IMG/VR virus record: IMGVR_UViG_3300045747_000505
Origin: a virus
Taxonomy: Duplodnaviria > Caudoviricetes
DNA length: 64,000 nucleotides
Reading direction: 5' to 3' (one strand)
Below are positions 14,269-63,842 of this stretch, one piece after another; within the stretch, counting starts at the first letter, position 1, and each line of letters begins with the position of its first letter. Below the pieces are notes generated by a model that saw only the letters and a list, made by a program, of their open reading frames with translations, had not been told where the DNA came from and did no database searches. Position numbers and translations under genes: made by a program.

Positions 14269-14656
14269 CATCATTCAATTCAGACCTCGCGTAGCGCCAC
14301 CAACATTTGCGGTGCTGCGCGAGCGTGCCGTCGAGGATATTACTTCTGATTGGGAGCGCTTCGCGCACGATAATCACCTCAACGATTACTTCATTCAAAG
14401 CGTTCCGCAGTGGACCGAAATCGGTCGCAATTACCTGGGCGATTTGAATTTGATTAGCGTCGTCGAGCAGAAGGTCAAGCTCGACCTGCAAATTACAGCA
14501 CCCTCCTACGACGGCGAGCGTCTCGGCTGGACGGCGTCCTTTGGGCTTTTCGAGTACGGTCTGACTGTCACTCCACCGATGGTCTTCGAAACGTACGCTC
14601 GCTGTTTTGCCGTGCTGCTCTTCCTTCGGTTGAAGCGTGACCTGTTGAAGTTGTAA
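14261..14656 (+). CDS. Hypothetical protein
   Basis: TTG start, MADIIQF N-terminus. Confidence 0.65.
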   Translation: MADIIQFRPRVAPPTFAVLRERAVEDITSDWERFAHDNHLNDYFIQSVPQWTEIGRNYLGDLNLISVVEQKVKLDLQITAPSYDGERLGWTASFGLFEYGLTVTPPMVFETYARCFAVLLFLRLKRDLLKL

Positions 14657-53221: not shown

Positions 53222-53895
53222 TGCCAACCGCCCAGCTTCGCTCGCTGGCTGCCAAGTCAGACAAGACTCTTGGTGACCTCGAGCGCTACTGGGCAGACGC
53301 CAAGGTTGAAGCTCATCACAAGTTCAAGAAGAAGGACAAGCACTTCTGGGCCTACGTCGTCGGTATCGTCAAGCGCCGCGCTGGGCTGAGCGAAGAGGAC
53401 ATCAGCTTCAAGACCTATCTGCTCCTCATCGAGGACGACAAGGCGCACGGCAAGGCTCTCGAGCGAACAGGCTTCTGGGGCAAGGCTGGTGCGGGTTGTA
53501 TCATTTTAGCTCGGGACACGGGAAGAATCTGCCTGCCGAAGCGAAGCAAGGACGTGGAGCAACCACACACTTGGGGAACTTGGGGTGGCGCTATCGACGG
53601 AAGAGAGGCGCCTAAGGCCGCTGCAGAGCGCGAGGTCCGTGAGGAAGCTGGATATACAGGCAAGCTCGAAATCGTTCCCCTGTACGTTTATAAGCATCCC
53701 AGTGGCTTCACCTACCACAACTTCCTGGCCATCGTGGACAAGGAGTTCGAGCCAGAGCTGAACTGGGAAACGTCGACCTACCGTTGGTGCTCGCCAACGA
53801 AGCTGCCGTCGCCGCTGCACTTCGGTCTGAAGGGTCTGCTTGCCGACGCCGCAAGCTGGCAGAAGATCAAAGACGCTCAACCTAAAAAGACGTAG
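53221..53895 (+). CDS. Nudix hydrolase with N-terminal helical domain
   Basis: Nudix box GGAIDGREAPKAAAEREVREEAG. Confidence 0.88.
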   Translation: MPTAQLRSLAAKSDKTLGDLERYWADAKVEAHHKFKKKDKHFWAYVVGIVKRRAGLSEEDISFKTYLLLIEDDKAHGKALERTGFWGKAGAGCIILARDTGRICLPKRSKDVEQPHTWGTWGGAIDGREAPKAAAEREVREEAGYTGKLEIVPLYVYKHPSGFTYHNFLAIVDKEFEPELNWETSTYRWCSPTKLPSPLHFGLKGLLADAASWQKIKDAQPKKT

Positions 53896-53924
53896 CCTGA
53901 AGACTGAGACATAGAGTAAAATAC

Positions 53925-54256
53925 AGACATGGGTGCTACAGCCATTCTGTAGTGATTGTTGTAATTCGGAGCAAGTTGAAGGATTCTGGACGCGGGTTCG
54001 ATTCCCGCCAGGTCCACCACAAAACACATACCGCCGGCTGTAGAATTCGGCAACACCTTAGGGACGATCCACGTGGTGTGTGTTTTGTAATGGGCCTGAC
54101 CTGGTCTCGACAGGGTTACGGAGATGCGCACACGCAACACGAGAGTCGACCGACGTAATCGGCGAAAACACGCTAAGTGCAAACGAAGCAAACTTCCGTC
54201 TGGCTGCTTAATACCCAGCTCACGGTGAGGCTAACCACCTTATAAAGCAACGGTGA
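53925..54256 (+). ncRNA. ssrA: Circularly permuted (two-piece) tmRNA; tag ANEANFRLAA*
   Basis: 3' acceptor piece GCGGGTTCGATTCCCGC-CAGGTCC-A-CCA ends at 54019 and precedes the 5' piece GGGCCTGAC-CTGGTCTCGAC at 54092; G3.U70 pair; tag frame 54179-54211; outer ends approximate. Confidence 0.9.
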
Positions 54257-54282
54257 GGACAGGACACTTCGGTGTCCTGTCC
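54257..54282 (+). terminator. Hairpin after tmRNA coding piece
   Basis: GGACAGGACAC-TTCG-GTGTCCTGTCC. Confidence 0.75.
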
Positions 54283-58665: not shown

Positions 58666-58983
58666 ATGAAACGCACTCCAAACAAATCCCCTAATCACAA
58701 CCAACTTTGGTATCGTGCGCAGTTGACGCCCATGTCGACCTCGCTATTTACCGACGCTTTTTATCCGAAACCGAAACGAGGTTCAGGCGCACAATACGTG
58801 TTCTTCACCCAGATTGACGTGACACCAACCACGCACAAGGTTATCTTGGCCTCACGCCTGGAAGAATCCGGTGTTAGAATGGTGACACACGAACTGGCAA
58901 CGAGAATCCTCATCCCGAAGGAAAAAGCGACCAAGGCTGAAATGGCAAAACTGAACGAACTGACCGCAAAACTGAAAGTCTGA
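58666..58983 (+). CDS. Hypothetical protein
   Basis: Follows TATAAT promoter; start lies in or next to hairpin GAGAGCCCT/AGGGCTCTC. Confidence 0.6.
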   Translation: MKRTPNKSPNHNQLWYRAQLTPMSTSLFTDAFYPKPKRGSGAQYVFFTQIDVTPTTHKVILASRLEESGVRMVTHELATRILIPKEKATKAEMAKLNELTAKLKV

Positions 58984-59633
58984 TGACCTACTTTACCTAC
59001 CTCTACTCGGACCCAAAAGTTGGCGTCTGGCGATACGTAGGTAAGGGCGACTCTTTTAGACCGTTCGCTCACCAACGAAAGGCTTCTAACAAACAACTGA
59101 CATCGATGATTCGGAAGAGAATGAATGAAGGGTTCAAGATAGAACCAGTCCTCATTCAAGCGCCATCTGAGATGTCGGCCTTTGCGATGGAAATCTTTTG
59201 GATTGCGGTTATTGGGCGTGAAGACCTTGAGTTAGGAACGCTCTTCAACAAAACAAATGGCGGCGAAGGTGTAAGCGGACGAGTTGTAGGACCAGAAGAA
59301 CGAATGGCTCGTTCGGTCTTGCGAAAAGCCGAATACGCTAGACGCACACCAGCAGAGTGGGAACACTTCAACAGACAACGTAGTCAAAACCTCCATTCAA
59401 AATCAGATAGCGAAAAGGCTATCATCGCTGAAAAAATCTCGCTCGCTACATCGGCATCCTATCAGGGAAAAGATGAGGCGTCCAAGGCTGAAATCTCTAG
59501 GAAGAAGGCCGAAGCGAAAACAAAGTATCATCAAGGCCTGAGCGAAGAACAACGTGCCGCACGTGCGAAGAACATCGCCGACGGTATGGCTCGAGCCAAA
59601 GCCCTAAAACTCTCGGAAAAACTGAAGGTCTGA
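58983..59633 (+). mobile_element. Free-standing GIY-YIG (LEM-3-like) homing endonuclease
   Basis: YTYLY...YVGKG...R...H...EIFWIAVIGR...GTLFNKTNGGEG; A-rich; flanked by a 16-nt direct repeat. Confidence 0.8.
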
Positions 59634-62202: not shown

Positions 62203-62808
62203 ATGTCTAAATTTTACGCCTACATTTATAGAGACAACGAGGTTCCGTTTTATGTTGGTAAGGGAACAGGCAATCGTGCCTATCTTCATCTTACCGACCG
62301 AAGAGGATCACACTTTACAAATAGGGTTCAGCGTCTCGTAAGAGAAGGTCGAGCCCCGACAATAGAAATCATCGAAGCGCTGGACGAGGACCACGCCAAG
62401 TTTTTAGAAGTTTGTCTCATCGAGGTCATTGGTCGTGCCGACCTTGGCAAAGGAACATTGTTGAACCTAACCGATGGTGGCGATGGTAGAACAACTTGGT
62501 CTGAAGAACAGAAACGGCATCACTCTGAAAAAATGACGGGACAGAAGAGAACGGAAGAAACCAAAAGACTGATGTCTGAAGTACAATCGCAGATACCAAG
62601 ACAGAAGGCAAAACCAGGCGAAAAGAAACGAGGACCAGCGAAAGGAACGAAGTACGCAAATCGTGTCAACGGAACCTTTAGCGACGAACATCGACTAAAG
62701 TTGGCGCAATCTCAAACCGGAAAAACGCATTCGCCTGAGACCCGTGCCAAGATCGCAGAGACACGGCGGAAGACAGAAGAACGAAAGAAGATGTTACAGA
62801 CAACCTAG
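62203..62808 (+). mobile_element. Free-standing GIY-YIG homing endonuclease with NUMOD3-type repeats
   Basis: YAYIY...FYVGKGTGNR...H...GTLLNLTDGGDG; HSEKM, HSPETRAKIAE; A-rich. Confidence 0.85.
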
Positions 62809-62954
62809 GTCGTTACAAAAAAGTGATGTACAGGGTCTGAGAACATGATAGAATAGCTTCATCGGTTGGAAATACAAGCTCTCACAAATCTTGTTACGAA
62901 CAACCTGAGACGTTACAAAAAAGTGGTGTACAATCGATAGGATTATGTTATAGT
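62793..62954 (+). promoter_or_regulatory. Two tandem sigma70-like promoters, 100-bp period, each with a GTTAC pair
   Basis: GTTAC-N14-GTTAC-N9-(A/G)TGTAC-N17-TAGAAT/TATAGT at 62793 and 62893. Confidence 0.8.
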
Positions 62955-62960
62955 AGCTCT

Positions 62961-63352
62961 ATCGATTGGACACGGTCCAGTAAGCAAGCCCTAAACACCT
63001 TGCGACCCTCTGCAAAGAGGCTGCTCTAGAAGGCAACGATGCCTTCGATCAAAATTTGAACATGCCAACAGCTTACGCTGATGGTCAATGCATCTGGTTA
63101 GAACGGGCTCCAATGGGCGCCCCAGTATTGCCGGTCACGTTGATTGTCTAACGTAAGAACTTGTCTTGCCTCTAGTGTATGTGCCTGAAATAACCGGTCC
63201 TTGTAGGCCGAAGGCTGAAACGTGTACCGTAAGTTCGAAAGGACTGAGGAGTCGTCAGTGGTCGTCGCTAGAACGTAAGACAAAACCTGGACTGTTGGCG
63301 ACTTTGACACGACGCTGTATTGCGCTCCTCTGTCATCGTTAGTAATGGTCCA
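62961..63352 (+). ncRNA. Unassigned structured RNA (~390 nt) at the head of the tRNA operon
   Basis: No credible ORF; several tetraloop-capped hairpins and nested complementary segments. Confidence 0.55.
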
Positions 63353-63356
63353 CTAT

Positions 63357-63431
63357 AGGAGATTAGCTCAGAGGCAGAGCAACGCCCTTACAAGGCGAAG
63401 GTCGGGATTTCGAAATTCCCATCTCCTACCA
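63357..63431 (+). tRNA. tRNA-Val(TAC)
   Basis: AGGAGAT/ATCTCCT-A-CCA; loop CT-TAC-AA; TTCGAAA. Confidence 0.92.
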
Positions 63432-63502
63432 TATCAAAGATCATCAGAGACACAGCCGCCCTAAGCCGCGGAAGTATGGTGGTGATCGGTGTTCTTTGAT
63501 AT

Positions 63503-63597: not shown

Positions 63598-63683
63598 GGA
63601 TGACGAGTAGCACTGGCGACTACAGCGGACTGTAACCCCGCCGCCTTATGGCATACTAGGTTCGACTCCTAGGTCATCCACCA
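63598..63683 (+). tRNA. tRNA-Tyr(GTA), second divergent copy
   Basis: GGATGAC/GTCATCC-A-CCA; loop CT-GTA-AC; long variable arm; CTAGG-TTCGACT-CCTAG. Confidence 0.88.
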
Positions 63684-63687
63684 GATT

Positions 63688-63795
63688 TATCAGCTCGGCG
63701 CGACGTGCGCTGGCAGACATGGAAACGGCGATGCTTCGGCATTTAGGTCCGCCCATAGCGTCCGGGAAACACAGGCCTGGATTTACCGAGCTGAG
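63688..63795 (+). ncRNA. Unassigned small structured RNA (~105 nt) ending the tRNA operon
   Basis: Closing helix TCAGCTCGG/CCGAGCTGA then T-run; internal ATGC-TTCG-GCAT hairpin. Confidence 0.5.
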
Positions 63796-63842
63796 TTTTT
63801 GTATTAGGCTAATCGTAAATAGTCGATAGCAAGGAGACATTG

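Follow-up and report, generated by a model that had tools for sequence, protein, structure and literature searches.

What does a giant freshwater phage keep between strong promoters and the first gene of a tRNA operon, and is that stretch one RNA or an assembly of parts? The stretch in question, positions 62961-63352 of the window (the whole 64,000-nucleotide piece of DNA that was analyzed), is the untranslated leader of a tRNA operon, with two tandem promoters on one side of it and tRNA-Val on the other. It is present in public wetland and pond metagenomes, and the phage of the window also has tRNA clusters, a suppressor-type tRNA and a two-piece tmRNA (53884-54282), the beta type of which suggests a betaproteobacterial host. 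The initial annotation, made from the letters of the window, had taken the leader for a single structured RNA of about 390 nt. Our analyses showed it instead to be a modular operon leader and not a single 390-nt RNA fold; the conserved unit within it is an 80-nt three-way junction with its closing stem, P1 (together about 123 nt, 63161-63283).

Setting, homologues and coding potential of the leader

A homologous leader was identified directly ahead of tRNA-Val (nhmmer, E = 6.6e-18) in L001, a 106-kb IMG/VR contig that was reached via a syntenic protein and that has the gene order of the window: tmRNA, amber-type tRNA, shared ORFs, then Val-Tyr-Tyr. The leaders of related jumbo phages (other L numbers) were gathered via a conserved neighboring protein. 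In addition, contigs of four runs (X numbers) were aligned to the leader, and the resulting variants included an L001-like contig from X7 and a 380-nt contig, X8, which was rebuilt by script from a difference table in which all 19 substitutions and 8 gap letters were listed.

The features that frame the leader are as follows.

62810-62854, plus strand: promoter 1, with an A-tract, a -35-like TGTACA (62827-32) and a TG-extended -10 box TAGAAT (62849-54) at a spacing of 16
62910-62954, plus strand: promoter 2, a near repeat of promoter 1, with TGTACA (62927-32) and the -10 box TATAGT (62949-54) at a spacing of 16
63357-63431, plus strand: tRNA-Val(UAC), the first gene of the operon, 4 nt past the end of the leader; RNase P would be expected to cut at its 5' end

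Both promoters have the TG extension and an A-tract upstream, and the same layout of A-tract, TGTACA, TG-TATAAT and AGCT stands ahead of the tRNA arrays in L001, L011, L014, L017 and L026. The leader begins about 7 nt past the -10 box of promoter 2, ends 4 nt before tRNA-Val and has no plus-strand terminator between the promoters and that gene, in agreement with the initial annotation, which had placed it directly after strong promoters and at the head of the tRNA operon. In the contig of a close relative, 62866-63052 is missing (joint 62865-63053), promoter 2 included, and promoter 2 is therefore read as a strain-level insertion or duplication. In one contig from the RNA library X11 the same interval is replaced by 26 bases containing CTCTTTAAC.

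Two free-standing genes of the window resemble GIY-YIG/NUMOD3-type homing endonucleases (62203-62808 and 58983-59633). The former ends 20 nt ahead of the promoter region and has no counterpart at that place in L001; the indels between close strains, 62866-63052 and 63081-63287, cluster just downstream of it. Further along the operon, ARAGORN called the third tRNA (63598-63683) as a second tRNA-Tyr(GUA), which falls below the Rfam tRNA threshold and has tRNA-Sec as its best match (25 bits, E = 0.02). This tRNA is followed by a multi-hairpin element of about 105 nt (63684-63805) with a 9-bp closing stem and then UUUUUG. This element could be the terminator of a short operon or another small RNA, and separate contigs of it occur both in run X8 and in the RNA library X11. 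The boxA-like string GTTCTTTGATA in the Val-Tyr spacer (63491-63501) is the 3' strand of the long hairpin of that spacer and is probably due to chance, because related spacers form end-to-end hairpins without it.

Open ORFs are found on both strands of the leader, and none is conserved. The homologues are separated by indels that are not multiples of three, and the only plus-strand frame common to the window and L001 is broken by a stop in the rebuilt X8 variant. The leader is non-coding, as initially annotated. That it should encode a small protein or leader peptide, from GAGGAG followed by GUG or from an open plus-strand frame across the core, is hardly credible. The string GAGGAG-N6-GUG (63247-63261) is invariant in the window, L001 and X8 and does resemble a translation start, and the plus-strand frame is open in the first two; however, translation from the GUG would give unrelated peptides of 6, 33 and 16 residues, the indels and the X8 stop codons run against a shared frame, and no ORF of this kind was found when the pseudo-ORF across the core was searched in the protein database.

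Is the leader transcribed? The RNA libraries X11 and X26 hold small shares of it, and their contigs, in which carry-over of DNA is possible, speak to presence and not to ends or levels. Of the phage stretch, one X26 contig (record 5) covers 63051-63288 alone, and in this small run only that interval and the tRNA-Val region are covered. An X11 contig (record 2), from a variant that lacks the junction, extends from 62975 into tRNA-Val. These contigs give weak support to transcription of the leader and to its co-transcription with tRNA-Val.

The three-way junction and its closing stem

Compared with shuffled sequences, the predicted folds had z = -3.3 for all 392 nt, -3.2 for 63161-63283 and -3.7 for 63284-63356. 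Searches of 62961-63352 against Rfam 15 identified no family at the gathering threshold (RNase P, 6S, SRP, introns, GOLLD, ROOL, YrlA, riboswitches and self-cleaving ribozymes included), and at E<10 the sole match was a 16-bit chance match to an archaeal snoRNA model. The initial annotation had likewise recognized no RNase P, 6S, SRP or group I signature. The parts of the central fold are listed here.

63161-63185, plus strand: 5' strand of the closing stem P1, the same stem in independent minimum-energy folds of the window, L001 and X8, with differing letters
63260-63283, plus strand: 3' strand of P1, from the minimum-energy folds
63183-63262, plus strand: conserved three-way junction of 80 nt, from nhmmer, covariance model R1 and the pair table, with UGAAAUAAC as J1/2 and AAG as J2/3
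63195-63199 paired with 63206-63210, plus strand: P2 of the junction, 5 bp with a 6-nt loop
63214-63259, plus strand: P3 arm, 46 nt, containing a GNRA-capped hairpin (63232-63245) and two internal loops that are invariant

When the window, L001 and X8 were each folded alone, the same shape was obtained. P1 consists of about 22-25 pairs with small bulges, and its sequence is rewritten from lineage to lineage (e.g., UCUAGUG/CGCUAGA, UGUGA/UCACG and AGCAU/GUGCU). The initial annotation had called for covariation to be sought, and in the junction it was found. In a pair table of 20 pairs in three sequences, the only junction variants in hand, all 60 cells hold standard pairs; four of the 20 pairs show compensatory changes and one shows a one-sided change. 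The compensatory changes are two of G-C to A-U in P2, one of U-A to A-U at the base of P3, and one of U.G to G-C in the hairpin, the last being the GTTC-GAAA-GGAC stem of the initial annotation (63233-63244), which in L001 is GTGC-GCAA-GCAC. Pairing is kept at all nine variable paired positions. Six of the 34 unpaired positions vary, five of them in hairpin loops, and 27 of the 28 bases of the junction and internal loops are fixed.

On its own, the 80-nt core did not exceed shuffled sequence in stability (z = -0.05 and -1.1), which indicates that conservation, and hence selection, lies in its unpaired bases. Such fixed unpaired bases are as expected for a binding or tertiary-contact surface, and would not be the mark of a mere hairpin.

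Could the shared core instead be functionless spacer DNA that was recently transferred between phages? The junction is patchy, being absent from near-identical strains, and it is very similar between otherwise distant phages (94% identity in the core between the window and L001, as against 48-63%, about 55%, for the neighboring proteins). Recent transfer, however, predicts uniform similarity, whereas the stems are rewritten with compensation and the loops are fixed, and we consider this explanation improbable.

The range of the junction was then defined by several searches. Model R1, built on the core, scored 109 bits in both the window and L001 and found nothing elsewhere; it detected no further copy either in the complete L001 record (106 kb) or among 25 related loci. 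Scanning for core patterns returned only the L001 contig from IMG/VR and nothing from 185,579 prokaryote genomes. With blastn, the leader had no match in 50,697 phage records, and a wider query matched only at the tRNAs and a promoter-like 46-mer. Apart from the L001 contig, the loci fetched by short core patterns (L003-L010 and L029-L034) were all rejected as chance matches, lying in coding regions or having no further likeness. The eight pattern matches in JGI metagenomes had no nhmmer signal, and a looser pattern gave six further viral loci (R1 E = 0.07-1.1), one of them within a 542-aa ORF and one within a short ORF with its own ribosome-binding site; both sets were treated as due to chance.

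The junction thus recurs in L001 and in metagenome variants, and close relatives are without it, which shows that it is dispensable. Judged from the sequence comparison, it is a real, conserved and uncatalogued RNA fold of narrow range. The initial annotation's proposal of a novel structured RNA holds in so far as there is covariation and no Rfam match, but the 5' third of the leader and its inner hairpin vary between strains. To speak of a new ncRNA class is premature, because the motif was found in only two phage lineages, along with a handful of metagenome variants, and is missing from close relatives.

The initial annotation had also entertained a ribozyme. A new self-cleaving or otherwise catalytic RNA would be in keeping with a compact multi-helix junction that has invariant unpaired bases and a GNRA loop, and the string CUGAGGA resembles the CUGANGA box of the hammerhead. 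That string, however, lies not at a three-way junction but in a two-strand internal loop of P3, and the fold has neither the GAAA nor the cleavage-site element of the hammerhead. Moreover, no ribozyme family was matched in Rfam at E<10, no known catalytic core was recognized, and no contig end or joint marks a cleavage site or otherwise gives evidence of cleavage. We regard catalysis as very improbable.

Other likenesses were considered for the invariant loops. Hammerhead, K-turn and Y-RNA readings were judged by eye and dropped, and an assignment of the GUA/GA loop as a bulged-G (loop E-like) motif is only a guess. A likeness of CUGAAACGUGUACCGUA to CUGAAACCGUGUACGUA of E. coli 23S rRNA was rejected, as 24% of shuffles reach its score. 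The P2 loop (63200-63205 in the window) contains a Val codon in all three variants (GUA, GUA and GUU), which is expected about once in five by chance; UUGUA in the loop of the window is complementary to five anticodon-loop bases of the following tRNA-Val and is not kept in X8. No T-box motif or Rfam T-box match was found in the leader.

Leader signals, scaffold strands and exchangeable cargo

Around the junction, the leader contains the following features.

62961-63028, plus strand: strain-variable 5' hairpins UUGGAC/GUCCAG and CCUCU-GCAA-AGAGG (z = -2.7), not conserved in L001 and absent from X11 record 1
63029-63046, plus strand: boxB-like hairpin GAAGGCA-ACGA-UGCCUUC, directly 5' of the boxA position
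63043-63054, plus strand: decayed boxA CTTCGATCAAAA, aligned to GCTCTTTAACAA of L001
63063-63077, plus strand: segment A, UGCCAACAG, then CUUACG; invariant in four phage lineages
63080-63148, plus strand: lineage-specific long hairpin, absent from L001 and present in the RNA-library contig X26 record 5
63289-63299, plus strand: segment B, GGACUGUUGGC, which can pair with segment A or segment C
63288-63352, plus strand: 3' hairpin domain, in which B is paired with segment C (63343-52); -25.1 kcal/mol, z = -3.7, 46% of the ensemble

Ribosomal RNA (rrn) operons are laid out as P1/P2, boxB-boxA-boxC and a leader-trailer helix (PMC10250234), and the boxA consensus is GYTCTTTAANA (PMC5725501). L001 has a canonical boxA, GCTCTTTAACAA, 20 nt ahead of the conserved stem, and this 12-mer is exactly the boxA of the E. 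coli rrnH leader. At the L001 locus the exact boxA match is at 14556, and there were five near-matches as compared with 1.07 expected. At the homologous place, boxA with a hairpin upstream was identified in L001, L011, L012, L014, L017, L024, L026 and L027, always in the leader and on the plus strand, and every aligned relative has a hairpin at this place ahead of boxA. L024 has two perfect copies, while the boxA sequences of L011, L012, L014, L017, L026 and L027 are within one or two mismatches; L012 and L017, like L024, have two copies each. In the window, boxA differs from the consensus at four of the ten specified positions, and its leader holds no closer boxA and none with two or fewer mismatches, while a close relative's contig has a canonical boxA where that of the window is decayed. 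Nus-dependent antitermination is consequently doubtful for the phage of the window, and the boxA comparison makes an antitermination reading appear well founded for the phage family.

The decayed boxA raises the question of whether the junction replaces it as an RNA that acts directly on RNA polymerase against termination, in the manner of HK022 put or EAR. The junction does lie in the promoter-proximal leader of a long untranslated operon, and in the window it occurs together with a decayed boxA. However, L001 has the junction with a perfect boxA, and relatives have boxA without the junction. The junction, with its three arms, also has no known likeness in shape, and none in sequence as compared via Rfam, to put RNA, which consists of two hairpins. 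This reading has in our view a slim chance of being correct.

The strand that immediately follows boxA, UGCCAACAG, shows no variation among the window, L001, L017 and L026. It is complementary to CUGUUGGC (63292-63299), 230 nt downstream, and the adjoining CUUACG is complementary to CGUAAG at 63152-57 or 63275-80, a pairing that in L026 has become CUCACG/CGUGAG. Segment B is conserved in L001 and L026, and L017 has GAUUGUUGGC in its place. The 3' hairpin ends 4 nt ahead of tRNA-Val; equivalent helices are found in L001, L026, L017, L012, L014 and L011, and the pairing partners in relatives end 4-5 nt before the first tRNA. In a duplex test of the pre-tRNA bases against the post-boxA region, five of six leaders (L001, L017, L012, L014 and L011) gave better pairing than shuffled controls, while in the window the B:C pairing was not above them. 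The A:B helix and the 3' hairpin use the same bases. As the minimum-energy folds of the 3' part favor the hairpin, the enclosing A:B helix may be only transient. Viewed as a boxC or leader-trailer strand, the post-boxA strand is invariant, complementary to a later strand and in competition with a more stable 3' hairpin.

These competing helices could be those of a riboswitch-like sensor, in which a ligand or protein bound by the junction stabilizes A:B, CUGUUGG otherwise pairs ahead of tRNA-Val, and the processing of the tRNA or the extent of transcription is altered. The A:B and B:C pairings exclude each other, and both are conserved in the window, L001, L017 and L026; the fixed bases of the junction and its loops could make up a pocket. 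Nonetheless, there is no terminator, ribosome-binding site or downstream ORF to serve as an expression platform, as what follows is a tRNA. In relatives the A, B and C strands are retained, and what stands where the junction would be is a plain hairpin or another cargo; no riboswitch family was matched. We give a sensor of this kind a low probability.

Comparison of the leaders also bears on the stems that had been listed in the initial annotation, all of which exist as complementary strings but only some of which are backed by homologues. L001 lacks any counterpart of GAGGAG/CTCCTC, of GTCGCTA/TGGCGAC or of the end-to-end TGGAC/GTCCA, and CCTCT-GCAA-AGAGG is missing, with the rest of the first 90 nt, from a close relative's contig. 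GAAGGCA-ACGA-TGCCTTC does fold at 63029-63046, the place at which relatives also have a hairpin. CAGC-TTAC-GCTG is better read within the longer CUUACG/CGUAAG and GCCAACAG/CUGUUGGC helices.

The material between the scaffold strands differs from phage to phage. In the window this cargo is a 69-nt hairpin and the three-way junction, and in L001 it is the junction alone. L026 (13690-13800) has two tandem repeats of about 25 nt and no junction, and L017 has a plain palindromic hairpin. The X11 contigs match the window at 97-98% identity in their flanks and have, at the cargo place, 62-75 different bases instead of 63081-63287. In these alignments, relatives keep the leader scaffold, with a different cargo or none.

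The scaffold of L026 reads boxA, UGCCAACAG, CUCACG...CGUGAG, GGACUGUUGGC, CAACAGUCC and tRNA-Val. A second conserved structured RNA, multi-branched and 130-165 nt long, is present in L012 (13003-13152), L017 (9889-10018) and L024 (13580-13746), where it lies between the two boxA copies of the tRNA-array leader and has fixed blocks such as AUCGGAGUAAC and GUAGCCGGGAAACCGGAGC. It has no Rfam match; its model, R2, finds L012, L017 and L024 only, and it is absent from the window and L001.

Proposed operation of the leader and comparison with known systems

We think it probable, with some reserve, that the stretch is the 5' leader of a tRNA operon on the plan of rrn leaders, with tandem promoters, the boxA and Nus signals of its relatives, a scaffold slot holding the junction, and release by RNase P. 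On this plan, host RNA polymerase would start at the two tandem sigma-70-type promoters and produce an untranslated transcript, and in the relatives boxA would recruit host Nus factors, such that the long untranslated transcript escapes Rho-dependent termination. At the place of boxC, UGCCAACAG would pair with CUGUUGGC like a leader-trailer helix and enclose the variable cargo, which in the phage of the window would be its private hairpin and the 80-nt junction on the long P1. The 3' hairpin would reuse the CUGUUGG strand, and RNase P would cut at 63356/63357 and release the leader. The invariant unpaired bases of the junction may be where a protein, or the machinery of transcription or processing, docks, and cuts in P1 and at the tRNA may free the junction as a stable fragment. 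Within the leader reading, we speculate that the most likely role of the junction would be that of a protein-docking module which is freed in this way.

A more far-reaching reading, which we consider possible and rather unlikely, is that these jumbo phages run a miniature rRNA-type operon, in which the Nus machinery transcribes and folds interchangeable cargo RNAs and hands them over for excision, each of them a new trans-acting class with a protein partner. The cargoes would be the junction, the 130-165-nt family of L012, L017 and L024, and the repeat element of L026.

The tRNA arrays of huge phages are many kilobases long and are never translated, and we know of no study of how their transcription proceeds past Rho or how they are folded and cut. 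On the rrn-type leader plan that we favor, the locus suggests that these phages copy the start signals of host rRNA operons and have in the leader a slot that takes small folded RNAs, which differ even between close strains. With its fixed loops and compensated stems, the 80-nt junction makes a compact candidate, open to testing, for a new RNA-protein interaction in the phage takeover of translation. In our literature searches, neither boxA leaders on phage tRNA arrays nor the junction motif were described in any paper.

Stable RNAs are known from other tRNA operons. RNA C and RNA D of T4 are stable RNAs in a phage tRNA cluster, and 3'ETS-leuZ of E. coli is an sRNA derived from a tRNA-operon spacer. 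The phage element would resemble these as a non-tRNA RNA that is co-transcribed with tRNAs and released by tRNA-processing enzymes, but differs in standing first in the operon, at its 5' end, within a long stem, and no relation in sequence is expected. With GOLLD, ROOL and the YrlA-type Y RNAs it shares a linkage to tRNA genes in phage genomes; in contrast to these, it has no match to their models at E<10, is much smaller than GOLLD or ROOL, and is without the Ro60-type stem-bulge signature of the Y RNAs.

The lambda nut and HK022 put sites are similar to the phage leader in being promoter-proximal RNA signals in a phage transcript, with a logic of boxA and hairpin. However, in the phage leader the hairpin precedes boxA, which is the order of rrn rather than of nut, and, unlike for nut, we know of no N-like protein for it.

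There is also a close resemblance to the rrn leader. Common to both are tandem promoters, a hairpin and then boxA, a conserved strand after boxA with complementarity to a later one, such that pairing would enclose a folded RNA, and an untranslated transcript that contains tRNAs. The phage leader differs in enclosing the 80-nt junction or another small cargo rather than 16S rRNA, in belonging to an operon of tRNAs and small RNAs only, in the decay of boxA in the window, and in a trailer strand that is also able to pair with the bases before the first tRNA. What is new here is modest: the leader would be a variant of the rrn-type leader, and the junction that it carries is an uncatalogued motif of narrow range.
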